Assembly (NCBI GenBank): GCA_041675485.1
Contig: JBAYTT010000001.1
Location: forward strand, 8,666-72,665
Direction of reading: 5' to 3'
From: Pelobacteraceae bacterium
Lineage (GTDB): Bacteria > Desulfobacterota > Desulfuromonadia > Geobacterales > Pseudopelobacteraceae
DNA length: 64,000 bases
Both the position numbers and the translations under genes were made by a program. Of this stretch, positions 8,510 to 64,000 are shown piece by piece (the stretch's first letter is position 1; every line of letters begins with the position of its first letter). The notes below the pieces were generated by a model. That model ran no database searches, was not told the origin of the DNA, and worked only from the letters and a program-made list of their open reading frames with translations.

Positions 8510-8614
8510 TCACGATTTTTTTGATTTGCGCATATCACTGATGGCAACACAGACAAATATAACCACCAGAATAAATCCGCAGAAAATCCAGTCCGCCATA
8601 CTGAAACCGAACAT
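8510..8614 (-). CDS. possible 34-aa membrane micro-protein
   Basis: AGGAG then 7 nt then ATG at 8614. Translation MFGFSMADWIFCGFILVVIFVCVAISDMRKSKKS (one TM helix plus a basic tail). Too short for the ORF track. Confidence 0.35.
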   Translation of the reverse strand: MFGFSMADWIFCGFILVVIFVCVAISDMRKSKKS

Positions 8615-8616
8615 GG

Positions 8617-9522: not shown

Positions 9523-10361
9523 CGTTTTTCTTCCTCTCTTCCCGGAAATGTGTTGATACCGGCATGCACACCGATCATGCGGTATATCTGCACTCCATCC
9601 CACGGCACATCCATGATGCCATCGTGAATCGCCCAGCTCCTCCCGCTTACCGTTCGCTCCATTCCGGGCATCCGAAAGGGGCTTGATCCGTCGAGCCGCA
9701 AAAAATATTTCCCGCCGGGCTGAAATTCCTTATCGATCTCCATCATAAGCCGTTTGCCCCGGAGATAGTCGAAACCGTATTTTTCATAGCGAATGGCATT
9801 GTCATACGAAAGCGGCTCCGCCACGATCATCTGCATCCCGAGCGCATCGGTGAAACGCTCCATCAGCGGAAAAAAGGTGACAAAGAGTTGCATTCCGTGA
9901 TGGGTCTGATTAGGGAACAACCCCGCCCGCATGGCTCGCAACTCCTCCGGGATATTGCGTCCCTGGGATGCAAACCAGTTATTTGCCCCGCTTTCATCGA
10001 CATCAACGGCATAGTGCGCGGAGTTTGGATCACGAATGATGCAGAAGCTGAGCTCCATTTGGTGATACTGGGTATCGGACAGCTCCAGAAAAAAAACCAC
10101 GATGCCATTTTCAGGTTTCGATCGGGCTTCGATCCGTACCAGGGGCAACCCTTTCGGAGCGATGATAGTTACCAATCGCTCTCCGGCTGAGTTGCAGAGT
10201 GAATTTTCCGCCAAACCCAAAACGTCGCGCAGACGTTGCGGCAAAAGGCGGGAATAGATCCGCTCCTTTTCTGGCTCGTCCAGCCGGTTAATAGCCCTGA
10301 GCGAAGTGAGCGGCCGACCGGCGGCATCCAGCAGCTGGCTGTTAGCGGGAAGTATTGCCAT
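9519..10361 (-). CDS. conserved hypothetical protein (280 aa)
   Basis: Long ORF tightly packed between the HDAC gene (20-nt overlap) and the TPR gene (ATGA overlap). No motif recognised. Confidence 0.65.
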   Translation of the reverse strand: MAILPANSQLLDAAGRPLTSLRAINRLDEPEKERIYSRLLPQRLRDVLGLAENSLCNSAGERLVTIIAPKGLPLVRIEARSKPENGIVVFFLELSDTQYHQMELSFCIIRDPNSAHYAVDVDESGANNWFASQGRNIPEELRAMRAGLFPNQTHHGMQLFVTFFPLMERFTDALGMQMIVAEPLSYDNAIRYEKYGFDYLRGKRLMMEIDKEFQPGGKYFLRLDGSSPFRMPGMERTVSGRSWAIHDGIMDVPWDGVQIYRMIGVHAGINTFPGREEEKR

Positions 10362-11502
10362 AGCTTCCGAGTATACCAGGAAAAATCGTATGTTTTATGA
10401 GGGCGATGCTCTTTTCAACCGCCACCAGAGCCAATGTTCGATCTGCCTCATCTGCCCAGTGCGGGGCATCAAGCAGGACCCGGTTCCGATACCCCAGGGG
10501 CTCTATCTTGTCAATAAAAGCGGGAGGGAGCCTCGGATTGAGTTCGACGTTGTTCATGATTGCCCAGGCCAATGTCCAGGCCCTGGCCGTGTTCATGAGG
10601 TCGTACCCCCCTCCACCCAGTGCCACCCAGGGGATCTTGAGTCGCTTTATTTTAGTCAGGATCTCGCAGTAGCCATGCGTCGTAATCTCCAGATTGGTGA
10701 GCGGGTCGGTGCGAAAGGTATCAGCGCCGATCTGGGCGACAATGATGTCGGGATTGAAGGCAACGATCAGGGGATAGGCAACCTCGTTAAAAGCCTTCAG
10801 ATATATCGCATCGTCCGTATGAGCCAGGAGCGGCACGTTAGCGGAATACCCCCTGCCCCGCCCAGTACCGATTTCATCCTCAAAGCCGGTGCCGGGATAG
10901 AAATAAATGCCGCTCTCGTGGAGGGATATTGTCAGCACCTGATCGGTGTCATAAAACGCTTCCTGGACACCATCACCATGATGGGCGTCAATGTCCAGAT
11001 ACAGCACCCGTCGTCCGCGGGAAACCAGCCAGTTTATGGCGGCTGCCGCATCATTCAGGTACGAAAAACCGGAGGCCTTGGCACGGTGGGCATGGTGCCA
11101 GCCGCCGTTCATATTGAAGGCGGCATCGATGCCCTCCTCTTCCACCAGCCGGACAGCCTCGAAAGTCGCCCCGGCACCCAATGCGGCATAGTCGTATAAG
11201 CCGCTGAAAACAGGACATTCAGCATCGCCCAGACCAAACCTGAAATCGGCCCGCGGTTCCTCGGAAACGCTGAACTCCTTGAGGCGGGCAATATAGGCAG
11301 GGTCATGGAACGACAGCAGAAGTTCATCAGAAGCCGGCAAACAGTCGCGGATCTGCATATTCGGAAGATAAAGCAGACCATAGGCGTCCATCAGGTCATA
11401 CGCCAGGCGATTGCGCTGCAGTTTGAACGGGTGATCATCACCATAATTGAATGTTCCGAAAAGCGGAGAATATATCAGGGCGGTGCGGTAGGGGTGCATC
11501 AA
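10342..11502 (-). CDS. histone deacetylase family enzyme (AcuC / acetylpolyamine amidohydrolase-like)
   Basis: HPFKLQR, GGWHHA and DIDAHHGDGVQEAFY motifs of class I/II zinc deacetylases. Confidence 0.93.
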   Translation of the reverse strand: MMHPYRTALIYSPLFGTFNYGDDHPFKLQRNRLAYDLMDAYGLLYLPNMQIRDCLPASDELLLSFHDPAYIARLKEFSVSEEPRADFRFGLGDAECPVFSGLYDYAALGAGATFEAVRLVEEEGIDAAFNMNGGWHHAHRAKASGFSYLNDAAAAINWLVSRGRRVLYLDIDAHHGDGVQEAFYDTDQVLTISLHESGIYFYPGTGFEDEIGTGRGRGYSANVPLLAHTDDAIYLKAFNEVAYPLIVAFNPDIIVAQIGADTFRTDPLTNLEITTHGYCEILTKIKRLKIPWVALGGGGYDLMNTARAWTLAWAIMNNVELNPRLPPAFIDKIEPLGYRNRVLLDAPHWADEADRTLALVAVEKSIALIKHTIFPGILGSYGNTSR

Positions 11503-11611
11503 CAGGCCTCACGGCGGAATGAACAGAATAAAGACCGGGCTGCCGTAATCGCAGGCAACCCGGTACTGTGGAACTATGTACGTTACGTGAATTTTCTGCG
11601 TTCAGAGTGCG

Positions 11612-13327
11612 TTACATCCTGAACTGCGCCACGATATGCTTGAGCTCTTCGGCCATGGACGCCAATTCATGAGCGGCTCCGGCGGTATCCTGGGAGCTTC
11701 TGGAGGCATCGCTGACAACCCCGGTGATCTGGTGCATGCTCTTGCTGATTTCATTTGTAGTAGCGGTCTGCTGTTCAGCAGCGGTAGCGATCTGGTTGAT
11801 CTGGCTGGTCAAATCGCCTACCTGCTTAATGATCTCCTCCAAAGCCTGACCGGAACGGGAGGCGTCCTTCGTACCGCGCTCAACTTCCTGAACGCCCTCT
11901 TCCATGGCGTCAACAGCAGATTGTGTTTCCTTCTGAATAGCCTTGATCATCTCGCCGATTTCCCGGGTTGCCTTGGTAGTGCGCTCGGCCAGAGCCCTCA
12001 CCTCATCGGCGACAACCGCAAAGCCGCGACCCTGTTCACCGGCACGGGCAGCCTCGATCGCAGCATTGAGGGCCAGCAGGTTGGTCTGATCGGCAATATC
12101 CTCAATGGTGCCGACAATATTTCCTATCTGCTCTGAACGGGTACCAAGCGATGCCACTGTCTTGGCACTCTGTTGCACTTTCACGGCAATGCGCTGGATA
12201 CTCTGAACCGCATGATCGACGACTTCCGAACCATCCAGCGCCGTCTGGGTCGCTCGATTCGAGATCTCAACGGTGCGTATGCAGTTGCTGGCGATCTCTG
12301 CCGACGTAGCAGCCATCTCTTCGCAGGCAATCGCCACAGAGGTTGACTGAGAGGCCGCCCTTTCCGTACCGCTCGCAATGATGGCCGAAGTCCTGTTAAG
12401 GTTATCCGCCGACCCGGCAACATCAACCGCGTTCTGGTTGATGCGAACGACAATCTCCTTCATGTTGTCAAGAAAATGATTGAATGAGTGTGCCAGCGAA
12501 CCTGTTTCATCCTCACGCTCTACGGTCAGGCGCTTCGTCAGATCGCCGCCGCCGCTGGACATCTCTTCCAGACTCGTATCGACATACCCGAGGGTTCTCG
12601 TGATGCCCTTACTGATGAAGTAGCAGAGCAACAGCATGAAAATGGCGAAGATGGTATTCATGCCGACCAGGATCCATTTGACTACGTCCACGTCCCTCTG
12701 GACGTCATCGATATAAATGCCGCTGCCAAGCACCCAGCCCCACGGCTCGTATTTCTGCACATAGGACAATTTGGTATATAACTCCGTCGTTGTGCCGCCG
12801 CCCGCCTTTGGCTTAGGCCATTCATAATTGACAAAACCATTGCCCGCCCGGTTTACGACTTCGTTGAACGTTACGAACAGATTTTTCATATCAACTTTCT
12901 GAACGTCGCCCTTCAGACCGTCACTCATGGTAGTGGCTTTATTGAATTTCGGATCATCAAGGACCTTGCCATCCAGAACCGGAAGGGTCGGATGCATGAT
13001 CATCTTCGGCACCGGCTTGCCCAGATCGTTGATCCAGACATACTCCTTCTTTTCATAACGGAGTTGCTTGATATGCTCCGCGGCTTCCTTCTGTGCCTGT
13101 TCAAGCGGCATTTTCCCCGCCTTGACTTCGGCATCATGCAGTTCCACGATCCCCATGGCCAACTCTACAATATGTCGAGTCGCATCCTTCTTTTCATTCA
13201 TTATGCGGGTTTCAATCAGCGGCAACAGGTAGGTAAACAGGCCGATCATCATGACCGCCACGCTGATTACGGAAATTGACATGATTTTGTACTGGATCCG
13301 CCAGTTTTTGAAACGCGAAATACTCAT
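11612..13327 (-). CDS. methyl-accepting chemotaxis protein with periplasmic single-Cache-type sensor, HAMP and signalling domain
   Basis: TM-sensor-TM, HAMP, and the highly conserved hairpin [42 protein letters not shown]. Confidence 0.95.
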
Positions 13328-13353
13328 TGTTTACCCCTTTATAAATTATTCCA

Positions 13354-13917
13354 CTATCCAAATAGATCTTTCAGTTTGTCAGCAATTCGTTCGGTCGGCA
13401 AGACAAAATCGACTCGGCCGGTTTCCGCGGCCGCCTTTGGCATACCGTAAATGACACTCGTTTTCTGATCCTGGGCGATGGTGATCCCACCAAGCTGTTT
13501 GATATGGGAAATTCCAGAAGCACCGTCCGATCCCATGCCGGTCAGAATGACACCTGCAATCCTGATCCCGACCGGAGCAACTACCGATTTCAAGGCGACA
13601 TCAACCGAGGGACGAACGGAATTGATTTTCTCTCCGTCGTGCAAGTGGACGAGGCTGTTTCGAACCAGCGTCAGATGCACCCCTCCCGGCGCCAGGTACA
13701 CCCGCCCCGATTGAATGTTCGTACCCTCCTGAGCAAGGAAGATCGGCATCTTCGAAACCCTGGCAAGCGAGGTAACAAAAGACTGGTCCACTACGGGTGT
13801 TATATGCTGGATGATGACAACTGCCGCTTTCAAGATCGGCAATCGCAGGAACAGCTCCTCGAGCACTTTGAGCCCTCCGGTGGATGATCCTATCAGCACA
13901 AGATTACAACCTGGCAT
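13354..13917 (-). CDS. cheB: CheB-type protein-glutamate methylesterase, catalytic domain only (no receiver)
   Basis: LIGSSTGG (Ser), VIIQHI (His) and GMGSDGA (Asp) motifs; 187 aa. In frame with the upstream receiver ORF across one TGA. Confidence 0.9.
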   Translation of the reverse strand: MPGCNLVLIGSSTGGLKVLEELFLRLPILKAAVVIIQHITPVVDQSFVTSLARVSKMPIFLAQEGTNIQSGRVYLAPGGVHLTLVRNSLVHLHDGEKINSVRPSVDVALKSVVAPVGIRIAGVILTGMGSDGASGISHIKQLGGITIAQDQKTSVIYGMPKAAAETGRVDFVLPTERIADKLKDLFG

Positions 13918-13920
13918 GGC

Positions 13921-14349
13921 TCAGTCAGCACCTTTCAACTGGTCTAGAAGAGCCAGATACTTCCTGACCGAAGTAACAAAACCGGGCGGATCAAACGGCT
14001 TGGTTATGTAGTCTATGACGACTTCCTGAAGTCCTTCCATCCGCTCGTCCGGAACATCCATGGCGGTCAGCATGGAGATGATATTTCCCTGAAGGAACCC
14101 GGCCTTTTCAATTTCCCGAATGACGGACCAACCGTCCATTCCGGGCATCATGACATCCATCAGGATAACCCCCCTGAAGCCGCCACGCAGAAAGCGCAGG
14201 CAGTCGTTTGCTCCAACAGCGGCAATGACATCGATTCCTTCTGAATCCAGCAGTTCACTGATGGTTTCACGGATGCACTCTTCATCGTCAACCAGCATGA
14301 TACAAGGCCTGACTGCTGCCTTTCCATGTTCTGATGCTGTGCCGCTCAT
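13921..14349 (-). CDS. response regulator receiver protein
   Basis: IMLVDDEE...VILMDVMMPGMDG...ITKP receiver signature; ATGA overlap with the upstream kinase gene. Confidence 0.9.
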   Translation of the reverse strand: MSGTASEHGKAAVRPCIMLVDDEECIRETISELLDSEGIDVIAAVGANDCLRFLRGGFRGVILMDVMMPGMDGWSVIREIEKAGFLQGNIISMLTAMDVPDERMEGLQEVVIDYITKPFDPPGFVTSVRKYLALLDQLKGAD

Positions 14350-15611
14350 ACGCTACCTCCTGCTTCCAGAGTAAAACTGATGGCAGTCCCGCCGTCTCTG
14401 CCAGGACTGCTGGCCGATATCCGTCCGCCGTGGTTTTCCACGATCCGGCGACAGATGGTCAGGCCAAGCCCGGAGGAGCCAAGCAGATGGCGGGAGTGGT
14501 CTGCTTTGTAAAAATCGTCAAATATGTGAGGCAACTCTTCGGGCAGAAGTCCAATACCGTCATCTCTTACGACAACCGCCACCACAGCGTTTTCACAGAC
14601 AGCTTCAACAGTTACCCGAGACCCTGGAGGAGAAAACTTCACTGCATTACTGAACAGCTGGGTAAACAACTCTTCCAGCTCCTCCCGGTTTCCCCGCACA
14701 GTCATATCGGACGGGATCGAATGCTCGATAGCAATACCATGATTCCTGAAGATCTCCGCCAACCTTGAAACGGATGAATCAACTGAAACGGAAAGCTGCA
14801 GGTCGAAACACCCGGAGGCGACATCATCCGATGACGTAAGCCGCGCCAATTGCAGGGTTTTTGCTACCAGATCTTTTATATGGTTCACGTTATTGATACA
14901 GAGATCAAGCAGTTCCTGCTGACGCGATTCTTCCGTGCGAGAGCGGATCAACGGCAAGAGTGCGACCAGTGGCGTCAAGGGCGTTTTCAGGTCATGGCCC
15001 AACCTGCTAATAAAAAGATCCTTCTGCTTAAGCAGTCCCTCGCGAAACTGATCACGACGATGTTTATGTGTGATGTCCTGGATGGTTCCAATCAGAGTTG
15101 CAGGCTCTCCGGAATCACTATGCCGCACCTTCCCGCGGCTGAGAAAAACACGATTGCCTGCGTCACCATCCATTCGATATTTTATTTCGTAACTGCCGTT
15201 CGTACGAATCGCCTCCATGACGGTTTCACGCGCCTGCTGGCGGTCTTCCTCGTGAATCATCATAAAGAACTCTTCCATATTTGGCGCTACGGTGCGCGGA
15301 GGAAGGTTAAAGAGCCGATAATGGTTATCGGACCAGTATCCCTTCCCGGTGGCAAGATCTCGCTCCCAGCTACCAAGACCGGCCAGTTGCTGCGCTTCAT
15401 CCAGATTCTGTTTTGCCCGGTTCAGCGCCTGCTGGTAGTGCAGCAGTTTCCCGGCGATGGCAATAAACATGAGGACAAAAATGAGGCCGATTACTTGCGG
15501 GAGGTGCCTGCCAGGCGTATGAAAAATCAATTGAACAAAAAATGAAACGCCAGAGCCTAGCAGAAAGGCTGAAATGAAAAAAAGAGCCACGATTCGTCTT
15601 GATACGTTCAT
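14346..15611 (-). CDS. membrane sensor histidine kinase with PAS domain
   Basis: Two N-terminal TM helices, a PAS-like region, H-box RLGHDLKTPLTPL, and an ATPase G-box GSSGLGLTICRRIV. Confidence 0.9.
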   Translation of the reverse strand: MNVSRRIVALFFISAFLLGSGVSFFVQLIFHTPGRHLPQVIGLIFVLMFIAIAGKLLHYQQALNRAKQNLDEAQQLAGLGSWERDLATGKGYWSDNHYRLFNLPPRTVAPNMEEFFMMIHEEDRQQARETVMEAIRTNGSYEIKYRMDGDAGNRVFLSRGKVRHSDSGEPATLIGTIQDITHKHRRDQFREGLLKQKDLFISRLGHDLKTPLTPLVALLPLIRSRTEESRQQELLDLCINNVNHIKDLVAKTLQLARLTSSDDVASGCFDLQLSVSVDSSVSRLAEIFRNHGIAIEHSIPSDMTVRGNREELEELFTQLFSNAVKFSPPGSRVTVEAVCENAVVAVVVRDDGIGLLPEELPHIFDDFYKADHSRHLLGSSGLGLTICRRIVENHGGRISASSPGRDGGTAISFTLEAGGSV

Positions 15612-53944: not shown

Positions 53945-54433
53945 TCACCCTTGAGGTTTCCTGTCCAGGCTGCGATACTGAATCGCCTCGGCAATATGCT
54001 GCTCGTGAATTGTCTCGCTCCCGTCAAGATCGGCAATAGTGCGGGCTACCTTGAGAATGCGGGTATACGTGCGTGCCGAGAAACCAAGGCGATCGGTAAC
54101 CAGTTCCAGCATCCGGTTACCGCTTGCATCCAGCTCGCAATGCTTTTTGATGAAGCGTGGTGTCATCTGGGCATTGCAATGGATTTTAGTACCTTTATAC
54201 CGCTCCAGCTGAAGTTCCCGCGAACCTTCGACCCGACGGGCAATTGCTGCAGAGCTTTCTGCCTCGCCCCTATCGGCAAGATCGCGATATTTGACCGCCG
54301 GCACTTCGATGTGGATATCGATCCGGTCCAGCAATGGGCCGGAGATGCGGGACCGGTAACGGTGGATGGCAACGGGGGTACAGGTGCAGGGGTGGGTCGG
54401 GTCGGCCAGGTAGCCGCAGGGGCAGGGGTGTGT
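53945..54433 (-). pseudogene. comM: 3' fragment (C-terminal ~165 aa) of comM/yifB Mg-chelatase-like ATPase, truncated by insertion
   Basis: HPCPCGY...YRSRISGPLLDRIDIHIEVP...ILKVARTIADLDGSE...AEAIQYRSLDR is collinear with the C-terminus of YifB/ComM. The Lon-like and AAA+ N-terminal ~330 aa are absent upstream. Confidence 0.8.
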
Positions 54434-54456
54434 TAACCTTTCTCTACTATACTCAC

Positions 54457-54918
54457 TTGAAACGGCACTCGTTCTCAATTCAAATTCCCCTCGAAAAACA
54501 GCAGCTTCCCGGTTATCCCGAATTCCCCATCACAGTCGGTGAACACATCCGCAAGAAACGAATGGATCTTGGACTCCTCCAGAGAGAAGTCGCGGAGATC
54601 ATCGGCGTCACCGAATCCTCAGTCTGGAACTGGGAACATGGCACCGAACCAGAACTGCAATATAATCCAAGAATTATCAAATTTCTAGGTTATATTCCGT
54701 TCGACTGCCCGGATGGCACAGTGGGGCGGCTTGCATGGTATAAGAGAGCAATGGGAATGAACTATGATCTTCTTGGAGAGGCTATGGACCGTGATCCCGA
54801 ACAACTGTCAGATTGGTTGAGTGGCAGGCATAAACCGTTCAGGAAGAATCGGGAGAAGATCGAACTGTTCCTCGGAAGCCAAAAAATTATCTGCCAACCA
54901 GAGATTTCAACAGCCTGA
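54457..54918 (+). CDS. XRE-family helix-turn-helix regulator (two HTH-like halves)
   Basis: VGEHIRKKRMDLGLLQREVAEIIGVTESSVWNWEHG. The start is uncertain: the TTG at 54457 is the first plausible start upstream of helix 1, and the first ATG (54563) would delete helix 1. Confidence 0.55.
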   Translation: MKRHSFSIQIPLEKQQLPGYPEFPITVGEHIRKKRMDLGLLQREVAEIIGVTESSVWNWEHGTEPELQYNPRIIKFLGYIPFDCPDGTVGRLAWYKRAMGMNYDLLGEAMDRDPEQLSDWLSGRHKPFRKNREKIELFLGSQKIICQPEISTA

Positions 54919-54920
54919 TA

Positions 54921-55371
54921 GTGCAGTTTATAAACATTCTGAAACTTCATATACACAAATGGATTGACACGCCCATACCGGTACGACTGGTTAGCAAGTG
55001 GCGGACGGAGACATTGTTTCAGGCGGTTGAAGATTGCTTGCGTCGAGCTTGCTGTAATGAGGTTCTTTATTGTGGCACTAATCCCGAAAACATTGCCATA
55101 TTCACTGACGCGTCGCTATTCAGCCCATTGCGGAAGGAATATCTGCTCGCTGTCTGTGATAGCCTGGCGGCAGAAGCTGATACGAGATTTTTTAACTTGT
55201 GGCCGGTTGTCAGGAGATTATGTGGAGGGAGGCAGCATTGCCACACTATCCACTTACCTGATAATACCACAACACATAGCGTCGAGTCCGATGCCCAACC
55301 ATTTCCGAGATCTGCAGCAGGTAACGCAGGATCTCGTTTCGGCTGCTGATATCCCTTTTGAGGGTCATTGA
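54921..55371 (+). CDS. hypothetical protein, possibly frameshifted (ORFs 54921-55349 and 54964-55371 overlap)
   Basis: The 5' part looks coding in one frame and the 3' part in the next. The switch is plausible at the T6 run 55188-55193. Confidence 0.3.
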
Positions 55372-55529
55372 ATGCCCGACGGACTTGACCTCCTCGGCAT
55401 CTTTGCAGGGGTTAACGACCACCTTTTTAAAGTATTCTCCGATTTTGCGCTAATCTATGCTAAAGTCGCAAAAAGCTTATCTGATAAAATATAGGAACAC
55501 TATACTCTGCTTTTACTTTGGAGCCTGTC

Positions 55530-56513
55530 ATGGCTAGCGCTGAGCAACTAAAAGCCCTGCTAAAATCACATATCGATGGTGACGATGCCCATTTTTATGC
55601 AGTTGCAATGCAGGTTGCAGCCCATGAAGCTAAACTAGGGCATGCAAAAATAGCGCTTGAATTGCGTTCCCTCATTGACGAGGCTAAAACCCCAAAACAC
55701 CTTGTGAAGGACGGGAGGAAGGCCGTTCCAATAGCTCAGCCACGAGGGGAGCTCTCTTCGCTCTTATCAGTGTCATACCCCAAACTTCGGCTTTCAGACA
55801 TGATTCTGGATGATGGGGTCCAGGAACGACTCGTTAGGATCATTAAGGAACATCGGCAGATAGCTAAAATCCGGTCCTATGGGCTGGCTCCTCGAAAAAA
55901 ACTGCTTCTTGTTGGTCCTCCTGGTACAGGGAAAACGATGTCTGCGGCAGTCCTCGCCGGTGAATTGGGTCTTCCTCTCTTTGTTGTTCGCCTTGACAGC
56001 TTGATAACCAAATTCATGGGAGAAACAGCGGCCAAGTTACGGCTCATTTTTGACGCGATTAGTCAGTCAAGAGGAGTCTACCTGTTTGATGAATTCGATT
56101 CCATTGGATCGCAGAGAGGGCTGAGTAACGATGTCGGTGAAATCCGGCGAGTGCTGAACAGTTTTCTACAGCTGATCGAACAGGACGATTCAGATAGCCT
56201 ACTGCTGGCTGCAACCAATCACCCAGAAATTCTCGACTACGCTCTCTTTCGAAGATTTGATGATGTGGTCGAATATGGTTTGCCGGAACAGGAACAACTT
56301 GTCAAAGCTCTTCAGGCTAAGCTCGCTGTGTTTCAAAAATCAAAAATCGACTGGAATAAGCTTGCAGACTCAGCAGCTGGTCTCAGTTATGCCGATATTA
56401 CGAGGGCGTGTGAAGAAGCGATCAAGGAAGCTATTATTCATGACCGTCAAAAGGTAGTCACTGACGACATCTTAAAAAATCTATCCGAACGAAAAGCGAT
56501 TCGATCCAAATAA
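55530..56513 (+). CDS. AAA+ ATPase (classic-clade single AAA module), IetA-like
   Basis: Walker A LLLVGPPGTGKT, Walker B VYLFDEFDSIG, and a second region of homology ATNHPEILDYALFRRFD. Start set at the ATG at 55530. Confidence 0.9.
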   Translation: MASAEQLKALLKSHIDGDDAHFYAVAMQVAAHEAKLGHAKIALELRSLIDEAKTPKHLVKDGRKAVPIAQPRGELSSLLSVSYPKLRLSDMILDDGVQERLVRIIKEHRQIAKIRSYGLAPRKKLLLVGPPGTGKTMSAAVLAGELGLPLFVVRLDSLITKFMGETAAKLRLIFDAISQSRGVYLFDEFDSIGSQRGLSNDVGEIRRVLNSFLQLIEQDDSDSLLLAATNHPEILDYALFRRFDDVVEYGLPEQEQLVKALQAKLAVFQKSKIDWNKLADSAAGLSYADITRACEEAIKEAIIHDRQKVVTDDILKNLSERKAIRSK

Positions 56514-56535
56514 TCCTATAGGTTTATCAATATAC

Positions 56536-58998
56536 ATGCCAGATCTGACTCCCTCCAAATTACCTCATCTGATTATTACCGGTACTGCCAGTACCGAAGT
56601 ATATTCGCCAATTCTCAAGCAAGGGCCCAAACACGTTCATCCTGTGCGCAATAGACAGCAACACGGCAGAGACCTCCTGACCAAACTGGAGCGGATCAGG
56701 GAAGAAGCCGTAGTGATAGGACGTGAACAAACCGCATTTGGCATCGACACTGGGAATGGTATCTACTTGCAGTTCGAGAGTGATCCAGAGTTCGAACTCA
56801 AGCTGGAAAGCCTGGAAAATGTTAAAGCTGGGATCGAGCTTGTTGCCGTAAAAAGTGACGACCACCGAATGGTCGCAACATGCTTTGTACCGGAAGGAGG
56901 GTTAGAGCATTTTTTCAAGTCATTCAATGATTATTTGGAAAAAGATACCAAAAAAGGGAAGCCTGTCCATCAGCCATTAGTGGATAGCATTAGTGACATA
57001 AAGCGAGCTGTTATCGATGCCCTCTGGACCGATGATATATGCCTTTTCCCTAGTGACGATGAGGTGATCTGGTGGGAAGTATGGCTCAGAGTAGGAAATG
57101 ATCGTGATGCCTTCGCGGACTTTTTCAAAAGTCATGCTCAAAACCTGGGTCTTGAGGTCGGAAGAGAAATTATTTTCCCAGAGAGGACAGTAGTTGCAGC
57201 TAAAGGAACTAAGTCGCAAATCGCACGTTCGATAACTCTACTGAACTGCATCGCTGAATTACGGAGAGCCAAAGATACTGCTGATTTTTTTTCGGCTATG
57301 GTGGCCGTGGAGCAAGTCGAGTGGATCAATAGTGCGTTGGGATTAATCACCCCCCCGGTTGATGATTCTCCAGCCGTTTGCTTACTGGACACTGGGATTA
57401 ATAACAGTCATCCACTGCTGGCAGTTGGCTTGAATGAAAAGGACATGGATGCGTATAATCCCACTTGGGGCATATCAGACCACAAAGGTCACGGTACTGA
57501 AATGGCAGGACTTGCTCTCTATGGGGATCTTACCGATATGCTTGCTACTACTGACCCCATTACCTTGTCTCATCGACTCGAATCGGTAAAAATTATCCCG
57601 CCTTATGGACAGAATCACCCTGATCTATACGGTGCCATTACAGAAGAGGCTGTCGCCCGTGCTGAACTGTTCGCACCCGACCGGCGTCGAGTAATTAATC
57701 TTGCAATATCGACGGATGACAAGGATCAGGGAAAGCCTTCCTCTTGGTCTGCAGCAATTGACAAACTCTCCTCAGGCTATGAGGATGACGAACGGCGTCT
57801 GGTTGTAATTGCCGCAGGTAATACCGCCTTGGATAGTCGCCATTTGTATCCTGACAGCAACTTGACGGATTATGTTCAAGACCCCGGTCAGTCTTGGAAT
57901 GCTCTTACCGTCGGAGCATATACTGAAAAAGTCTTGCTTGATGAGGCTGAATACCCTGGATGGAAGGTCATAGCTGCCCTTGGTGATCTTAGCCCGTGTA
58001 GCTGCACATCCATGATTTGGGAATCCGGATGGCCGACGAAGCCAGATCTGGTTATGGAAGGCGGGAATATGGCTATCGACCCTGGTTCAGGGCTTGCAGA
58101 CCATATTGACAGCTTAGCACTCTTGACAACGAACCGCGATTTCACTACGAAACCTCTCGTGACAACTGGAGATACCAGTGCGGCTACGGCCCTGGTCAGT
58201 AGAATGGCTGCAATTATTCAGGCTCACTACCCAGAACTTTGGCCGGAAACGTTACGGGCCTTGTTAGTGCACAGCGCCGACTGGACTCAGGCAATGCTCG
58301 ATCGATTCCACGATGGGAAGCGCATCGGTATTCGCAATCTGCTTAAATGCTTCGGTTATGGTGTGCCAAACATGGATAAGGCTATATGGAGCGCCCAGAA
58401 CTCTTTAAACTTAATTGTTCAGGATTCCTTGCAGCCATATGAGAAACAAAAGAGTGACTTCAAAACCAAGGATATGCACATTCACTCAATTCCTTGGCCC
58501 GTTGAGGTGCTACAGTCACTTGGCGACATCCACGTTGAAATGCGCGTCACCCTGTCATATTTTATTGAGCCCAATCCAGCACGTCGTGGGTGGACAAGGA
58601 GATACCGCTATGCATCACATGGCCTTCGATTTGACGTCAAGACTCCCGAAGAAACTTTGATGCAGTTCCGTCAGCGGATTAACCGTGCTGCTCATGACGA
58701 GGAGATGGGCGTAAAGTCAAAGAGTGACGTAAAAAGATGGGTGGTTGGACCTGACTTGAGAGGTCTGGGGTCTATTCACTCTGATCGTTGGCAGGGAAGT
58801 GCTGCTGAGCTTGCAACTCGTGGTTACATAGCAGTATATCCTGTTATTGGCTGGTGGCGGGAACGTCATTGTCTTGGTCGCTGGGATAAGTTGGCCCGGT
58901 ATGCACTTGTTGTCTCCATATCATCACCCGAAGAAAAAGTAGATTTGTACACTCCTGTTGTTAATATTGTATCCACTTCGATTGAAATAACCGTGTGA
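56536..58998 (+). CDS. cytoplasmic S8 (subtilisin-family) serine peptidase with large uncharacterised N- and C-terminal regions, IetS-like
   Basis: Catalytic Asp in VCLLDTGIN, His in HKGHGTEMAG, oxyanion Asn in IAAGN, Ser in TTGDTSAATA. No signal peptide. It starts 23 nt after the ATPase gene. Confidence 0.9.
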   Translation: MPDLTPSKLPHLIITGTASTEVYSPILKQGPKHVHPVRNRQQHGRDLLTKLERIREEAVVIGREQTAFGIDTGNGIYLQFESDPEFELKLESLENVKAGIELVAVKSDDHRMVATCFVPEGGLEHFFKSFNDYLEKDTKKGKPVHQPLVDSISDIKRAVIDALWTDDICLFPSDDEVIWWEVWLRVGNDRDAFADFFKSHAQNLGLEVGREIIFPERTVVAAKGTKSQIARSITLLNCIAELRRAKDTADFFSAMVAVEQVEWINSALGLITPPVDDSPAVCLLDTGINNSHPLLAVGLNEKDMDAYNPTWGISDHKGHGTEMAGLALYGDLTDMLATTDPITLSHRLESVKIIPPYGQNHPDLYGAITEEAVARAELFAPDRRRVINLAISTDDKDQGKPSSWSAAIDKLSSGYEDDERRLVVIAAGNTALDSRHLYPDSNLTDYVQDPGQSWNALTVGAYTEKVLLDEAEYPGWKVIAALGDLSPCSCTSMIWESGWPTKPDLVMEGGNMAIDPGSGLADHIDSLALLTTNRDFTTKPLVTTGDTSAATALVSRMAAIIQAHYPELWPETLRALLVHSADWTQAMLDRFHDGKRIGIRNLLKCFGYGVPNMDKAIWSAQNSLNLIVQDSLQPYEKQKSDFKTKDMHIHSIPWPVEVLQSLGDIHVEMRVTLSYFIEPNPARRGWTRRYRYASHGLRFDVKTPEETLMQFRQRINRAAHDEEMGVKSKSDVKRWVVGPDLRGLGSIHSDRWQGSAAELATRGYIAVYPVIGWWRERHCLGRWDKLARYALVVSISSPEEKVDLYTPVVNIVSTSIEITV

Positions 58999-59241
58999 TC
59001 AGCTCCCAAGTAAGGATGAAGTACCCCACCGGTTTGGAGCTTCAAGGGGGGACGGGACAACCCGACTATTTTTGACGGTTTATTCTTTGTTTGTGCAAAA
59101 TCTCATAAATGCAATCAACTCCTACTAAATTGCTCAATCTCTCCTTCTAAAAGTTCCTATCTGAATATTTTGTTTATTACACATCTCCCTTAATCAAACT
59201 CACACCTTCCCCCCTACAAGATTATCAGTCAGGAGGAACGA

Positions 59242-59748
59242 ATGTGTCGATTACCAGGCATCTGCCTGCTCATGATCAGTCTTGTCTGCATGCCGATCCA
59301 GGCCCATGCTTTCTGCTTCGAGGAGGCCGGGAGTCAATACGGCATATCGCCACAACTGCTTTGGAGTATTGCCAAGACGGAGAGCAACTTCAACCCCCGT
59401 GCGATCAATCGGAACAGTAACGGAACCTACGATTACGGTCTGATGCAGATCAATTCAAGTTGGGCCAAGAGACTTGGCAAAACATGGAATGAACTGGGAG
59501 AGCCATGCACGAATGTAAAGGTGGGAGCCTGGGTGCTGGCCCAATGTATTCAGGACTATGGCTACACCTGGCGAGCTGTCGGTTGTTACAACTCGCGTAC
59601 TCCGTCGAAAGGTGACCGTTATGCCGGTAAGGTATATCGAGTCCTTGCGGAGCACGCCAGGCCTCAGGCAATGACGATCGTTGCCTCCAACAGCACGCCA
59701 CGGTCCGTTTCGCCGTGGGATGTGGTGTTCATCGATGCTCTCCGCTGA
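59242..59748 (+). CDS. lytic transglycosylase (SLT domain), conjugation-associated
   Basis: Signal peptide; [18 protein letters not shown]...[10 protein letters not shown]. Confidence 0.88.
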
Positions 59749-60445
59749 TCTCTTCGAAAAATACCGGTTACCGGAAGACGAGGTTGTCGATGCCGTTGAA
59801 TGTGCTGTGGCCAAGACCCTGACCAAAGCTTTTCAGAAACGTGTTGAGGTTCGGGCGGAGGATGGGCTGGAAATCATCGCCTATCCCGCACTGGGGTACC
59901 CGGTAGCTATCCCGCTTCAGAGCATCACCAGGAAACTGCGCCGGCATATCATCCACAATGTCGAGGCCGAACTGCAAAAACGACAGATCATGATGGAGTC
60001 AAACGTATTGAAGGGACTGCAGGGAAGAGTCTTCTCCGGAGTTGTTGGCAGAATCGGTGCGACCGGGACGCTGCATGTGACACTGGAAATAGAAGATGCT
60101 CTCAAGTCGCTGATCCTCTATGGAGAGTGCCCGACACGCAACCAGCCTCGCCATGAGCGCTCCTGCTACCGCATAGGCGAACAGCGGCGCTTCCTGGTCA
60201 CGAGTGTGCGTCCAGTAGTAGTGGGCGGAGATGTTGCGAAGGTTCGCCTTGTCCTCAACCGGGCATCACGGACCTTTCCGGCGGTGCTCTTCAGGGAACT
60301 GACCGGCATTACGGAAATCGAATGCCAGCGGCGTGTTGCCGGCGGATTCAGCGAAGTGGTCACTCCGGTGCGGATTCCCAAATCATCAATCAACACAGTG
60401 GGAAAGGAATTACGTGAGCATATTCAAGTCATCATCACCCCATAG
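59735..60445 (+). CDS. NusA-like protein (N-terminal domain + S1-like + partial KH-like), truncated paralogue
   Basis: Collinear by eye with E. coli NusA residues ~1-270: [45 protein letters not shown]..., [23 protein letters not shown].... Confidence 0.55.
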
Positions 60446-61793
60446 CAACATCAACCCGAAATTCATGACTTCCATCGGCACCGGTGTCCAGATGGAAAGG
60501 CCGACCCGGATGGGTCCGATTTCAATCCCGGATCAATACCGGAAACGGCACATGTTCGTTTTCGGCACCACCGGGGTCGGTAAGACCCGTCTTTGCGAGA
60601 ACCTTATTGAGCAGGACATCCTCAAGGGCAACAGCGTCGTCTACTTTGACCCAAAGGGTGACCAGCAGATTTTTACCAAGATTTTCGAGGTCGCCCGCAA
60701 AGCCAAGCGGCTCAAGGATCTGATGCTCGTGACGCCGATTTTCCCGGAATACTCGGCTGTCATCGATCCCATGGCCTATTACTTCATGCCGGACGAACTG
60801 GTCGGCCATATCGTCTCCGGCATACAGGGAGGACGTGAGCCGTTCTACCGCAACATTGCTAAGGAGATTACCACCGCCATCATCACGGCAAACATCATCA
60901 TCGCCAACTGGGAGGAGCGTCTGCCCTCACAGAACATGGACGCCATCAGGCAGAGCATCCGCCGCTCGTCGCTGAGCAGCACCATGGCGCTCCTGCAAGA
61001 GATCAAAACCCGTGAGGCGCTGCTGACAGCCGGCATGATTCAGGACATTCTCGAATCACCGCAGGAGTATTACTCGAAGGTTTCTTCAACATTACGCACC
61101 TGCCTGATGGAACTTTCCTCCGGCAACATCGGCAAGATAATCGGTCAGGCTGACAGCAACCGCTTCATCAGCCGACTTGAGAAAGGGAAAGGGGTCATCA
61201 TGGTCGTTCACACCGGCACCATGATAACCAGGGAGGCTGCCGCTACACTCGGCAAGGTTCTCCTGTCGATGATCCAGTCCTTCATCGGCAGGGTCTATCT
61301 TTCAGACAAGCAGAAAGTATCACCGCCGTTGTCCATCTACATCGACGAAGCCCAGAGCATTTTCTACCAGGGGGTGGAGGATCTCTTCGCCAAAGCCGGG
61401 TCGGCAGACGTGATGGTTCATGCTTTCGCCCAATCAGTAAACCAGATTTATGCCGCCATTGGTGAGGAATATGGCAAGTCGATCCTCGACAATACCAATA
61501 CCAAGATCTTTATGCGCTGCTCGGATGCCGAAACATCGGAGTATGTCGTACGCCATTTTGGTGTTCGCAACGTGCTGACCGGCATTTTCGGGTCTAATCA
61601 GGTCACAACCCGTGAAGTGGAACAGGATATTTTGAAGGTACAGGACGTTCTTGGGCTGCAGCCTCGGGAATTTTACATGTTGACCTATTCCGGAAGGTAC
61701 AAGGGTGTGACTCACGATGCCAGGGACCCGCAACTGCAGATCGTCTTTCCGCCGGCACCATCATCCATAACTGCATACAGGGACGGTGCATGA
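60414..61793 (+). CDS. type IV coupling protein-like ATPase (TraD/VirD4 family NTPase domain) without N-terminal TM helices
   Basis: Walker A FVFGTTGVGKTR and Walker B LSIYIDEAQS. GTG start at 60414 with an AAGGA RBS (alternative ATG at 60465). Confidence 0.7.
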   Translation: MSIFKSSSPHSNINPKFMTSIGTGVQMERPTRMGPISIPDQYRKRHMFVFGTTGVGKTRLCENLIEQDILKGNSVVYFDPKGDQQIFTKIFEVARKAKRLKDLMLVTPIFPEYSAVIDPMAYYFMPDELVGHIVSGIQGGREPFYRNIAKEITTAIITANIIIANWEERLPSQNMDAIRQSIRRSSLSSTMALLQEIKTREALLTAGMIQDILESPQEYYSKVSSTLRTCLMELSSGNIGKIIGQADSNRFISRLEKGKGVIMVVHTGTMITREAAATLGKVLLSMIQSFIGRVYLSDKQKVSPPLSIYIDEAQSIFYQGVEDLFAKAGSADVMVHAFAQSVNQIYAAIGEEYGKSILDNTNTKIFMRCSDAETSEYVVRHFGVRNVLTGIFGSNQVTTREVEQDILKVQDVLGLQPREFYMLTYSGRYKGVTHDARDPQLQIVFPPAPSSITAYRDGA

Positions 61794-63259
61794 TCACCAT
61801 AATCCTCTATTGTTGCGGTGCTCTCGGCATCCTGATGGTTGCCTACAACCTGTGGCGCATCCTGGCCAAACAGCCGGCGAATGCAGCACAGGAGCCGTGG
61901 GCGCCTCTGGAACTGTCAGAACTGGAACCGGATGACGACTTCCCTCGCACAAACCTTTCCATAGTCGCACCGTTATGGAAAGGACATGTCGTCCAGTTTA
62001 TCGATCTGTCCAGGCTTTGGCGGGAACCCCCACCAAAGGAGGAAGAAGAAGCGGCGGTTCCCCGTCCGACGTTCCGACATCAGGAGATTGAAGAGTTTTA
62101 CTTCGACATTGTGGAAAGGGAACCACTGATCAAAGGTAACCGTAAGACCGTCATCATCTATCTGCTCAAGATCCTCGATGTTGATGGGACATGCCCGTCG
62201 GTAGTCGGCATCAAGAAATACTCGGGAGTCGGCAAGCAGGTATCCGATCCGGATTCGGCATACGGAACTGCTGCTCTTGCGCAATTGGCTACTGTGCCCT
62301 TGTACCGGCACTCCCTGGGGGTGGCTCGCAAATTCATCGAGAAGAATACCGAAAGGATCATGCTGCCCACGATTCTTATTGTATCTCTGGCGCACGACAT
62401 CGGAAAGATCCCCTCATACCACAGCCAGTATTATTCGACAGCAGACCATCCGCAGATAGCGCTCATCATCCTTGCGAGTATCCCGGAGTATGTCGCGCTT
62501 CCTAACAGGGATGATCTCGACAGCATCATCCGCAATCATCACCAGATGACACCGAACAACCCTCTCACCGCATGTCTGAAGAAGTGTGATCAGGAGGCAC
62601 GTAATGATGAGATGGGGGCATTCCTTGGCCAGATGGCGCAGATGAAGAGTCCCACAGTGAGCGAACCGCCGGCATTCATTGCCCTGCCGCAACCTGAAAC
62701 GGCAAGCACCGCCGAAAGAGCTTCCCAGGAATGGGATCACCCCCTTGGTTCCCCGGAATCTGGCAAATTCACACCCAAGAAGATCAAACTTCCTGGCTGG
62801 TTCGACGCTGATATGATCCTTGAAGCTATCCGCGGATTGATCAACCAGGTGGAGAAAACGTCGGCAGGGGTCAAATGGCAGGCCATATCACTTCCAAATG
62901 GCTTGGTCTACCTGAAGCCTGATGCGCTCTGGGAGATTATCCATCAGGTGAGTGCCGGCGATCCGATGGTCCTGGTTGCTGACGCTGATGAAGAAACCAA
63001 ACGGAATATTCTCTATACCGTTGTCTGGGAGCTGAGCGCTGTCAGAGATGCCATCGCCACCGAGTTGATGACCAATGCGTACTACACGACGAGAGCGTCA
63101 ATCGTGTCGAGCAACGACAAGGCATTCTACAAGCTCATGATCCCGTTCCGGGTAGATGCTTTCGGCGTGCTTACCTCAGACCTGGAAAGCACCAAGCCTC
63201 CGGTCCTGAAAAAAATCGTCAAGGATATCAGGCCCAAACAGGCGGAGGAGAGCGAATGA
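61790..63259 (+). CDS. membrane-anchored HD-domain protein (possible MOBH-type relaxase-like)
   Basis: N-terminal TM helix IILYCCGALGILMVAYNLW; HD motif HSLGVA...VSLAHDIGK...ADH. ATGA overlaps with both neighbours. Confidence 0.7.
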   Translation: MITIILYCCGALGILMVAYNLWRILAKQPANAAQEPWAPLELSELEPDDDFPRTNLSIVAPLWKGHVVQFIDLSRLWREPPPKEEEEAAVPRPTFRHQEIEEFYFDIVEREPLIKGNRKTVIIYLLKILDVDGTCPSVVGIKKYSGVGKQVSDPDSAYGTAALAQLATVPLYRHSLGVARKFIEKNTERIMLPTILIVSLAHDIGKIPSYHSQYYSTADHPQIALIILASIPEYVALPNRDDLDSIIRNHHQMTPNNPLTACLKKCDQEARNDEMGAFLGQMAQMKSPTVSEPPAFIALPQPETASTAERASQEWDHPLGSPESGKFTPKKIKLPGWFDADMILEAIRGLINQVEKTSAGVKWQAISLPNGLVYLKPDALWEIIHQVSAGDPMVLVADADEETKRNILYTVVWELSAVRDAIATELMTNAYYTTRASIVSSNDKAFYKLMIPFRVDAFGVLTSDLESTKPPVLKKIVKDIRPKQAEESE

Positions 63260-64000
63260 GGAGACTGATCCTTGCAGGGATTCTGCAATTGACTGTGTCC
63301 ACGGCCTCTGCCGGATACTACACCAATTCGTCAACCGGTTGGTGGTGGTACCAGAAAGAGCCGGAGAAACAGGCCGAGAAGCCGGCAAAAAAGAAAAAAC
63401 CGAGCAAGCCCGTTCCGTCCCTCAAGGACTACACCTATGAGCAAATCTGGGATATGCATCCGGACCAGTTCCAGGAGTTTGCCGAAGTATTGAAAAAGAA
63501 GGCTGTCCAGAAGCCGAGCGAAGAAAACGTGAAGGAGTACTTCGAGGTACAGGAAATCGCCCGTAAGAAGGCGCTTGCTTTTTCCAACGTGGCTCAGTTT
63601 GTCTGGCAGAAGTACCCGGAACTGACCACCAAGAAGGACTACCCGATCACGACTCCCGGCAACCTGGCCCGGATCTCCCAGATCAATGAGGAGCGGCAGC
63701 GCATCCTGCGGGACAACCGGGATGACTTTGCCCTGATTTATTTCCAGAGACCTGACTGCAGCTACTGCGATGAGCAATCCCGCATCCTTGACTGGTTCAC
63801 CAACGAGACCGGCTGGACCGTGAAGAAGGTCAACATCAGTGAGAACCCGGGACTCGCCGCCAAATTCAGCGTGGAGATCACGCCGACCCTGATCCTGATC
63901 CAGAAAGGGAACCAGGATTATCTACCGGTCTCGGCAGGCGTCATTTCCGCCGACGAGATCGAAGACAAGGCATACCGGGCCGTGCGCCTCCTCAAGGGTG
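63256..64000 (+). CDS. traF: TraF-like conjugative pilus assembly protein (thioredoxin fold), partial at the window end
   Basis: My translation: MRRLILAGILQLTVSTASAGYYTNSSTGWWWYQKEPE...FALIYFQRPDCSYCDEQ...ITPTLILI. Open to position 64000. Confidence 0.75.
   Translation, partial: MRRLILAGILQLTVSTASAGYYTNSSTGWWWYQKEPEKQAEKPAKKKKPSKPVPSLKDYTYEQIWDMHPDQFQEFAEVLKKKAVQKPSEENVKEYFEVQEIARKKALAFSNVAQFVWQKYPELTTKKDYPITTPGNLARISQINEERQRILRDNRDDFALIYFQRPDCSYCDEQSRILDWFTNETGWTVKKVNISENPGLAAKFSVEITPTLILIQKGNQDYLPVSAGVISADEIEDKAYRAVRLLKG

Follow-up and report, generated by a model that had tools for sequence, protein, structure and literature searches.

Does an ATPase-protease gene pair carried at the border of a conjugative element defend the cell, or does it mainly protect the element? 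The question is raised by two adjacent genes in the window analysed here, a stretch of 64,000 nucleotides from a Pelobacteraceae (Geobacterales) genome, and the placement of the pair among its relatives bears on which of the two roles is to be predicted. The reading that we prefer, with a probability of roughly three in four, is that positions from about 55450 to 59000 hold a pTiC58-type IetAS cassette, self-contained and horizontally mobile, which a conjugative element inserted in the yifB/comM gene carries as cargo and which serves in maintenance and/or defence, most likely as an addiction module and/or through abortive infection.

An IetAS gene pair of the pTiC58 type

The two genes are:

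55530-56513, + strand: ietA, ATG start, 327 aa, classical-clade AAA+ ATPase, presumed antitoxin
56536-58998, + strand: ietS, 820-aa cytoplasmic S8 subtilase, presumed toxin/effector

Both genes are intact and co-directional, as stated in the initial annotation, and are separated by 22 nt instead of the 23 nt given there. An in-frame TTG at 55518 is a possible alternative ietA start; the gene calls on identical contigs correspond to the 327-aa form. The first product had been recognized as an AAA+ module from the motifs GPPGTGKT (at residue 129) and LFDEFD (at 185), and this holds (Pfam AAA, 8e-28). It contains Walker A K135, Walker B D187/E188, sensor-1 N230, the Arg fingers R241/R242 and a K-F-M-G pore loop (161-164), and the Walker A and B, sensor-1, Arg-finger and F/Y-M/L-G pore-loop positions are invariant in 75-77 of 77 paired homologues. 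The nearest solved structures are the D2 domains of p97/Cdc48 (unfoldase rings). Judged by these motifs, IetA retains all the hallmarks of an active unfoldase. In the second product the S8 catalytic set is complete, with D285 in LLDTG, H319 in HGTEMAG and S548 in GDTSAAT as first described, while the oxyanion Asn is N429 (AAGN, 426-429) and not N428; all four residues are invariant in 59 homologues. The earlier statement that the protease has no signal peptide was confirmed, as IetS contains no signal-peptide-like or transmembrane-like segment (the Kyte-Doolittle 19-residue score peaks at 1.12, and at 0.82 within the first 40 residues).

Sequence profiles make it close to certain that the pair is a member of the IetAS family; the initial annotation had taken it for an IetAS-type or related system. 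In the PADLOC profile check proposed there, both proteins matched strongly and nearly full-length, IetA at 4.4e-78 (profile positions 3-323 of 374) and IetS at 2.6e-43 (IetS residues 94-813, profile positions 76-780 of 795). The IetA/IetS pair of the Agrobacterium fabrum C58 plasmid pTiC58, represented by sequences 100% identical to NC_003065.3, has the same gene order and closely similar lengths (327/820 aa here, 328/836 aa in pTiC58). The two pairs align collinearly from end to end, the flanking N-terminal region and C-terminal domain of IetS included, with an identity of 56% over 328 aa for IetA and of 43% over residues 1-808 for IetS. Both are carried by a conjugative element, here integrated in a Geobacterales bacterium and there a plasmid, and the genes are 22 nt apart here versus 3 nt in pTiC58. 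The copy belongs to the pTiC58-type, plasmid-stability clade. The NCBIfam model IteA_antiphage, on the other hand, gives 215.5 bits against an equivalog cut-off of 510, and IteS_antiphage gives 68.2 bits against a cut-off of 900, with only residues 226-634 aligned. Since both scores are far below the cut-offs, the copy is not an equivalog of the homologue that NCBI names anti-phage. The locus would already be flagged by standard annotation (PADLOC or DefenseFinder), and what is added here is therefore a host lineage and a carrier type, not a new system. The copy is a genuine but ordinary IetAS member, and nothing here is specific to this window.

Limits of the cassette and its position in the conjugative element

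The features that precede the pair, from the element border onwards, are:

54423-54433, no strand: left end of the element and junction with the truncated yifB/comM, CAGGGGTGTGT, placed where YifB homology stops and by comparison with contig L002
54457-54918, + strand: XRE-family HTH gene (Pfam HTH_3, 7e-8), context only; start uncertain, GTG 54430 or TTG 54457
54921-55371, + strand: two overlapping ORFs (142 and 135 aa), context only; the "broken ORF" of the initial annotation, with no detectable family
55450-55529, + strand: upstream control region that moves with the cassette, conserved among relatives at 74-82% protein identity
55458-55465, + strand: conserved TGCTAAAG within the region upstream of ietA
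55482-55490, + strand: extended -10-like TGATAAAAT, candidate promoter element
55520-55523, + strand: ribosome-binding site GGAG ahead of the ietA ATG

The yifB/comM gene is interrupted at 54433, where the ORF at 53945-54478 (minus strand) has homology to no more than the final third of YifB/ComM (profile positions 345-499 of 499), and the independent contig L002 agrees with the window from 54423 onwards, its DNA left of that position being unrelated. The cassette sits 1 kb inside this left end and is followed downstream of ietS by transfer genes, namely those for an SLT transglycosylase and a T4SS coupling protein, and then TraF and TraH on identical contigs. The pair had been placed just inside the element boundary, ahead of the transfer genes and in a lower-GC stretch, all of which is borne out, the last to a modest degree: the GC content of the cassette is 47.5% versus 54.2% in the transfer genes and 51.6% (sd 2.5%) in the host, and ~7% of equal-size host windows have a GC content as low.

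Comparison with relatives at 74-82% protein identity, the more distal flanks of which are unrelated, gives precise limits of the mobile cassette. In this alignment conservation extends from ~75 nt before the ietA ATG to the ietS stop codon, and thus includes a short region upstream of ietA, while the relatives themselves adjoin prophage genes, a type I R-M operon with a recombinase, or chromosomal genes. By this comparison only about 55450-59000 constitutes the mobile unit. We infer the promoter upstream of ietA from sequence elements within the conserved region; a consensus promoter scan picked another site (55238-55265), and the promoter/terminator scan gave nothing reliable above shuffled expectation. 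A hairpin 3' of ietS is not more stable than shuffled controls (z = 0.8), and neither a tRNA, an Rfam family nor a meaningful repeat was found at or near the cassette or the element border. The only known sources of the cassette DNA are metagenomic contigs and a Pelobacteraceae MAG, and positions 54300-59200 gave no megablast match in complete E. coli genomes or plasmids.

As the XRE gene and the ORF at 54921-55371 are co-directional with the pair and neighbour it inside the element border, all of them might constitute one four-gene system, a point on which the initial annotation had not decided, and the C-terminus of the XRE protein does weakly match the PADLOC candidate family PDC-M64B (2.6e-5). 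The ORFs at 54921-55371, however, have no match in Pfam, NCBIfam, PADLOC or PHROGs, and in 80 distant IetAS loci neither neighbour has a homologue less than 10 kb from the pair. In addition, the HTH half of the XRE gene has been replaced in two near-identical copies of the element (L001 and L004), one of which (L004, otherwise about 99.98% identical) has also lost 166 nt (54911-55076) from the ORF region, and in both IetA and IetS are identical to those in the window. Together with the onset of conservation among close relatives at only about 55450, this makes a four-gene system exceedingly improbable; the 80 distant loci and the L001 and L004 disruptions rule out both neighbours as system members.

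Domain organization of IetS

The protease may be divided as follows:

56536-57366, + strand: N-terminal region, residues 1-277, family-specific (Pfam PF27160, Y4kK_N)
57367-58362, + strand: S8 protease core, residues 278-609 (Pfam Peptidase_S8, 7e-62)
58363-58995, + strand: C-terminal domain, residues 610-820, jelly-roll-type β-sandwich with many invariant polar residues

The 277 N-terminal and 211 C-terminal residues outside the Peptidase_S8 domain are regions in which nothing had been recognized earlier. A family name can now be attached to the former and a jelly-roll-like fold to the latter, and neither shows a functional homologue: residues 1-175, 169-280 and 604-820 have no match in a local Pfam copy at E ≤ 10, and PDB sequence-profile searches with the N-terminal and C-terminal sub-alignments gave nothing significant. 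The Y4kK_N assignment comes from the precomputed Pfam listing for the IetS protein. In 2135 representative proteins this type of region invariably stands at the N-terminus, and an exhaustive representative search with it returned only proteins of IetS length and shorter, probably fragmentary entries, a result that is not decisive. In the AlphaFold model the region ends, just before the core, in a β-α-β-β-α-β unit (residues ~178-244), with pLDDT values of 50-65 for residues 1-170 and 70-88 for residues 175-280. The C-terminal domain, also conserved in pTiC58 IetS, has a pLDDT of 75-93 in the full model and, modelled alone, gives weak Foldseek matches to single-jelly-roll capsid proteins (E 1.5e-3, TM 0.3-0.4). 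In the domain map suggested for the pTiC58-clade protease, the S8 core is thus preceded by a family-specific N-terminal region and a pro-domain-like unit and followed by a jelly-roll-like C-terminal domain. That the flanks act as sensors, as the initial annotation supposed, is speculation.

Foldseek likewise places IetS among the subtilases, with matches at 1e-11 to 3e-19. For the whole IetS model, pro-form subtilases that carry accessory β-domains (Tk-SP 3afg, PCSK9, Kex2, EpiP) rank highest among the structural matches, at 3e-19 versus about 1e-11 for bare subtilisins. In topology, the modelled β-α-β-β-α-β unit preceding the core is reminiscent of a pro-domain, and the β-sandwich that follows the core of a P/jelly-roll domain. 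A relaxed Pfam scan gave no sequence support for an Inhibitor_I9 propeptide in IetS, however, and an hhalign comparison of the N-terminal profile with seven I9 propeptides gave a probability of 0.2%, and therefore a similar topology, not a pro-domain, is claimed. Unlike the pro-form subtilases, IetS is cytoplasmic and has an extra N-terminal region of ~170 residues. One may still envisage, though the idea is doubtful, that pTiC58-type IetS is a cytoplasmic zymogen in which the covalently retained pro-domain-like unit and the jelly-roll keep the core latent, the IetA ring controls the release or re-capture of the inhibitory unit, and the first ~170 residues dock IetA or a trigger. If so, the pair would be an ATP-gated protease switch and not a simple binding-type toxin-antitoxin system.

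How IetA may restrain IetS

IetAS was reportedly presented as an anti-phage system by Gao et al. in 2020, and the initial annotation, which relied on that account, added that no mechanism was known. That account is incomplete, since toxin-antitoxin roles of the pTiC58, SGI1 and Mycoplasma pairs and abortive infection in B. cereus have been published; full-text literature searches found no mechanistic IetAS paper. According to the accounts given in PMC5006074 and PMC13069673, the first IetAS to be described was that of pTiC58, a stability/incompatibility pair made up of a protease toxin and an ATPase antitoxin (Yamamoto et al. 2009, J Bacteriol 191:4656). SgiA/SgiT (S026/S025) of Salmonella Genomic Island 1 are described as an AAA+ antitoxin and an S8 protease toxin that promote the maintenance of a chromosomally integrated, mobilisable island (PMC5006074). 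By analogy, they would be the best functional counterpart of a copy on an integrated conjugative element, although SGI1, unlike the element here, is not self-transmissible. In the Mycoplasma pair deletion of the antitoxin alone is lethal (PMC8562856). Defence by IetAS needs protease activity, and attempts to construct ietA mutants failed (PMC13069673). The system of B. cereus m1293 causes abortive infection when triggered by a phage protein (bioRxiv 10.1101/2022.08.27.505566).

By analogy with these experiments on relatives, IetS would be a cytoplasmic subtilisin-like protease that is toxic if unrestrained and neutralized by IetA, in a pair that stabilizes its carrier replicon and, in other clades, aborts infection when triggered by a phage protein. 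IetA would be an active AAA+ enzyme of the unfoldase type, a hexamer whose aromatic pore loop is conserved, and, as its conserved motifs suggest, may spend ATP to keep IetS from acting or to confine it, either by remodelling the protease or by gating access to it. The restraint may fail on a signal from an invader or, if IetA decays faster than IetS, on loss of the element, and the freed IetS would then cleave host or invader proteins so that growth stops. We regard this mechanism, in which IetA restrains a toxic IetS and release stops growth, as somewhat better than an even bet. The same conserved pore loop, which in a classical-clade AAA+ protein engages substrates as in the unfoldase partners of compartmental proteases, would also suit a two-component ATP-dependent protease in which IetA would unfold proteins and pass them on to IetS, for housekeeping proteolysis or, as the genes immediately precede the transfer genes, for processing of the transfer apparatus. 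Such a function is very improbable, given that SLT, coupling-protein and HD genes lie near the pair in 0 of 80 distant loci, that the closest relatives occupy unrelated contexts, that the patchy, mobile-element-tied spread of the family across many phyla is not housekeeping-like, and that toxicity is seen in relatives when the ATPase is missing (PMC5006074, PMC8562856). The unfoldase hallmarks and the domain map suggest concrete mutants.

Maintenance, defence and the context of relatives

Pairing and genomic context, which the initial annotation proposed to survey, were examined in relatives. An ietA gene lies directly upstream of ietS in all 77 reference-genome relatives with room upstream (gaps of 6-129 nt). 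IetAS relatives occur on 495 plasmids, 342 of which are conjugative, and in the phage protein families phrog_3757 and phrog_3964 (PHROG). A plain listing of 141 flanking genes includes R-M methylases, ResIII, UvrD/GajB-like, AAA_15/21, DarT/DarG-like, AriA-like and PD-Lambda-3 genes.

Because the copy is of the pTiC58-type clade and misses the anti-phage cut-offs, maintenance has no weaker a basis than phage defence. On the element, the pair would most likely serve first of all in maintenance (addiction); defence against phages or competing plasmids would be compatible with this as a second role. It might even be argued that the pair is purely an addiction module of the conjugative element, acting by post-segregational killing and contributing nothing against phages or foreign plasmids. 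Indeed, its closest characterized relative is the pTiC58 pair, the SGI1 homologue maintains an island, the cassette itself lies on a conjugative element like most plasmid-borne relatives, and the anti-phage equivalog cut-offs are missed. However, relatives at 44-74% identity are often found in chromosomal defence islands, among restriction-modification, Gabija-like, DarTG and PARIS-like as well as PD-Lambda-3 genes, and not near replication or transfer genes, and other IetAS clades protect against phages (PMC13069673; bioRxiv 10.1101/2022.08.27.505566). Addiction and defence are also not mutually exclusive. An exclusive addiction role is rather unlikely, and a cassette with maintenance and/or defence functions remains our preferred reading.

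The anti-phage IetAS systems (Gao et al. 2020; B. cereus m1293) share with the window pair the two-gene architecture and the PADLOC family names, require the active site of the protease and show an abortive-infection phenotype. They belong to another clade, and the IteS_antiphage model leaves both the first ~225 residues and the C-terminal domain of IetS uncovered. The three-gene ietHAS variant, which has an SNF2 helicase (PMC13069673), has the IetA and IetS components in common with the window pair. No ietHAS-type helicase gene adjoins the pair in the window, the neighbours being the XRE gene, the family-less ORF and the SLT transglycosylase gene. Some distant relatives lie between ResIII/methylase and UvrD genes.

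Cassette genes and family membership

The cassette comprises two adjacent genes, encoding an AAA+ ATPase (IetA) and an S8 subtilase (IetS):

55530-56513, + strand: ietA, 327 aa, ATG start
56536-58998, + strand: ietS, 820 aa

The initial annotation had described two co-directional ORFs, both of which are real, and had placed them 23 nt apart; the gap measures 22 nt. An alternative ietA start (TTG, 55518) would add four residues, and the ATG is the start used by the gene calls on identical contigs. In Pfam, the AAA domain covers residues 129-253 of the 331-aa form of IetA, and Peptidase_S8 residues 278-609 of IetS (7e-62). The motifs read earlier lie where they had been placed, GPPGTGKT (129) and LFDEFD (185) in IetA and D285, H319 and S548 in IetS, except that the oxyanion Asn is N429 and not N428. 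Signal-peptide-like or membrane-like segments are absent from both proteins; for IetS, the lack of a signal peptide had been stated earlier.

An IetAS-type or related system had been proposed with DefenseFinder or PADLOC as a suggested check, and both PADLOC profiles match strongly (IetA 4.4e-78; IetS 2.6e-43, with residues 94-813 aligning to positions 76-780 of the 795-position profile). PHROGs also holds full-length families for both proteins. A tblastn search against plasmids returned 495 records with IetS relatives, with coverage of at least 80% in 380 and conjugative plasmids numbering 342. Many of the positive plasmids belong to Agrobacterium or Rhizobium, and the Agrobacterium comparator pair is 100% identical to NC_003065.3, that is, the Ti plasmid pTiC58 itself, which carries the founding IetA and IetS. 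Identity between the pTiC58 and window pairs is 56% for IetA and 43% for IetS (residues 1-808), and the two are collinear throughout. The PADLOC matches and this collinear identity mark the window pair, judged by sequence, as a clear member of the IetAS family and of the pTiC58 clade. The cut-offs of the NCBIfam antiphage equivalogs were not reached by IetA (IteA, 215 bits versus 510) or by IetS (IteS, 68 bits versus 900, residues 226-634 alone aligning), and by these scores the homologue named anti-phage by the NCBI models is not matched at equivalog level. Standard defence annotation would already call this locus; the modest additions made here are the exact cassette limits, the assignment to the clade of the plasmid-stability founders, the exclusion of neighbouring genes, and a domain map with conserved unfoldase features that points to testable mutants.

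Klebsiella plasmids account for 213 of the 495 plasmids with an IetS relative. On the one Klebsiella IncF conjugative plasmid examined, IetAS is surrounded by transposase genes, umuDC and a toxin-antitoxin stability module of the RelE/ParE type.

Position at the element border

The left border of the element is marked by an interrupted host gene:

53945-54433, - strand, within ORF 53945-54478: truncated yifB/comM, C-terminal ~155 codons left, stopping exactly at the element junction

The ORF aligns to the last third of YifB/ComM alone (profile positions 345-499 of 499), and homology stops at ~54433. From 54423 to 64000 the window is matched at 99.98% identity by L002, an independent contig of metagenomic origin, which carries, left of the position matching 54423 (L002 1-2028), unrelated DNA encoding a MacB-like ABC permease and ATPase, with no yifB. 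Because YifB homology stops there and L002 diverges leftwards, 54423-54433 (CAGGGGTGTGT) is a true end of a mobile element. Downstream of ietAS follow genes for an SLT transglycosylase, a T4SS coupling protein and an HD-domain protein and then, on identical contigs, TraF and TraH. The yifB cut, the divergence of L002 and these transfer genes support the earlier view that a conjugative element carries the cassette as cargo, directly inside its border. The L002 junction can be explained in two ways: the element has inserted at a second site, or its ends are joined in a circular form. In the latter case the MacB-like transporter would be cargo at its far end. The 11-nt CAGGGGTGTGT is yifB coding sequence that is also common to the L002 junction, and may constitute an attachment core.

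The lower GC content noted for this stretch was confirmed, the cassette having 47.5% compared to 54.2% in the transfer genes and 51.6 ± 2.5% in host DNA; the dip is real but modest, since ~7% of host windows of cassette size are as low. Among the transfer genes, a 254-aa ORF (59681-60445, + strand) lacks a detectable family and a 489-aa protein (61790-63259, + strand) has a weak HD-domain match.

Limits of the mobile unit

Comparative analyses were performed on 80 reference-genome loci from many phyla (IetS identity 44-63%); genome hits numbered 583 in all. At each of the 77 loci with room, ietS is immediately preceded by a co-directional IetA homologue (gaps 6-129 nt), and no homologue of the SLT, coupling protein or HD protein genes, of the upstream XRE gene or of the following ORFs was found within 10 kb at any of the 80:

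54921-55371, + strand: two overlapping ORFs, 142 and 135 aa, without a family match

In L001 and L004, two contigs with near-identical copies of the element, unrelated AT-rich DNA left of 54689 takes the place of the HTH-encoding half of the XRE gene, and L004 additionally lacks 54911-55076 (a 166-nt deletion); neither contig shows a change in IetA or IetS. Close relatives with 74-82% protein identity were aligned to the window from three unrelated contexts: adjoining prophage-like genes in Oryzomonas japonica; directly 3' of a type I R-M operon, followed by ParB/RepB genes and a serine recombinase; and preceded by an SbcC-like gene within ordinary chromosomal sequence. Conservation extends from ~75 nt before the ietA start to the ietS stop codon, with the upstream pattern TGCTAA.G … TGATA[A/T]A[A/C]T … GGAGCC … ATG, and as it begins and ends there the mobile unit is placed at ~55450-59000. 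A reading of the XRE gene, the 54921-55371 ORF and ietAS as one four-gene system is contradicted by these comparative data: the XRE gene and the supposed broken ORF lie outside the conserved span, have no homologue within 10 kb at the 80 loci and are disrupted in near-identical copies of the element (the XRE gene in L001 and L004, the ORF in L004), and were excluded as cassette parts.

Within the unit, 55458-55490 (TGCTAA.G, ~17 nt, TGATA[A/T]A[A/C]T) accompanies the cassette in the 74-82% relatives and looks like an extended -10 promoter with a possible operator. The interval of about 1 kb that separates the cassette from the element end (54430-55371) varies in copies ~99.9% identical elsewhere (L001 7400-8190; L004 2916-3160). 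The 54921-55371 ORFs match nothing in Pfam, NCBIfam, PADLOC or PHROGs and may be a decaying gene, and the XRE protein (54334-54918) has, in its C-terminal portion (residues 144-189 of a 194-aa reading), a weak PADLOC match to PDC-M64B/C, a candidate defence family (2.6e-5).

Domain architecture

IetA is a classical-clade AAA+ ATPase, whose nearest solved relatives are the D2 domains of p97/Cdc48. The Walker A Lys, Walker B Asp-Glu, sensor-1 Asn and both arginine fingers are invariant in 75-77 paired homologues, as is the pore loop (K/R)-(F/Y)-(M/L)-G. From its sequence, this residue set is the signature of a polypeptide-threading enzyme, and IetA appears not to be a degenerate binding partner.

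The AlphaFold model of IetS (mean pLDDT 77.8) is confident for the core and C-terminal region and poor for residues 1-170. Public database annotation assigns the N-terminus to Pfam PF27160 (Y4kK_N), which was not detected in the Pfam scan run here. A β-α-β-β-α-β unit (residues 178-244) immediately precedes the catalytic domain, and the segment AELRxAK(E/D)TADFF at residues 240-253 is conserved. In whole-model Foldseek searches pro-form or multi-domain subtilases (ProN-Tk-SP, PCSK9, EpiP, Kex2 and pro-subtilisin E) outrank bare subtilisins. A profile comparison with hand-entered I9 propeptide sequences was negative. Folded alone, the C-terminal domain has weak jelly-roll matches, and sequence relatives are absent from PDB and Pfam. 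The flanks are therefore described by fold type only, and the "sensor or substrate-recognition" label given to them earlier is a guess. It is rather improbable that IetS and IetA form an ATP-gated zymogen switch. The C-terminal β-sandwich (58363-58995, residues 610-820) contains an unusually large number of invariant polar residues (E678, N680, S694, H695, R698, H748, D750, R762 and R788), more than a passive stabilising domain would require.

Proposed function

In pTiC58 and in Salmonella Genomic Island 1 (SGI1), the pair stabilises its replicon, with the protease acting as toxin and the ATPase as antitoxin (PMC5006074). A Mycoplasma with a minimised genome does not survive deletion of just the ATPase gene (PMC8562856). 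In a three-gene variant from E. coli, phage defence requires the protease active site and ietA mutants could not be constructed (PMC13069673), and expression of a phage protein triggers abortive infection through a B. cereus IetAS (bioRxiv 10.1101/2022.08.27.505566). The conserved unfoldase features suggest that IetA would spend ATP to hold IetS inactive; this restraint may be lifted when an invader signal arrives or the element is lost, and proteolysis by IetS would then stop growth. Given the conjugative-element carrier and the pTiC58 clade, element maintenance is ranked first by our analysis, with defence as a compatible second role. A module serving maintenance only, which is compatible with this main reading, is plausible at a lower probability. 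That the pair is an ATP-dependent protease for housekeeping or transfer is unlikely, as at none of the 80 loci is it linked to the transfer genes seen here and its relatives are toxic without the ATPase.

Genomic context of relatives

The survey took in the two closest ORFs on either side of the pair at 38 loci (141 proteins; Pfam and PADLOC). The most frequent families are N6_N4/type III methylases (six) and UvrD/GajB-like helicases (four), followed by ResIII, AAA_15/AAA_21, Eco57I and AriA-like proteins (three each); DarT with an ADP-ribosylglycohydrolase and PD-Lambda-3 occur once. The relatives show a strong tendency towards defence islands and mobile elements, which is a tendency and not a measured enrichment against background. 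In at least six loci from distant phyla (L041, L078, L061, L050, L081 and L077; ~6000-14600 in each) the gene for a DNA methylase of 890-970 aa lies immediately upstream of ietA. In L041 the methylase is preceded by a ResIII gene of ~1020 aa and ietS is followed by a UvrD helicase gene of 690 aa, and L078 repeats these gene sizes and their order. This recurrent layout is suggestive of a larger composite system or of a preferred slot in defence islands.
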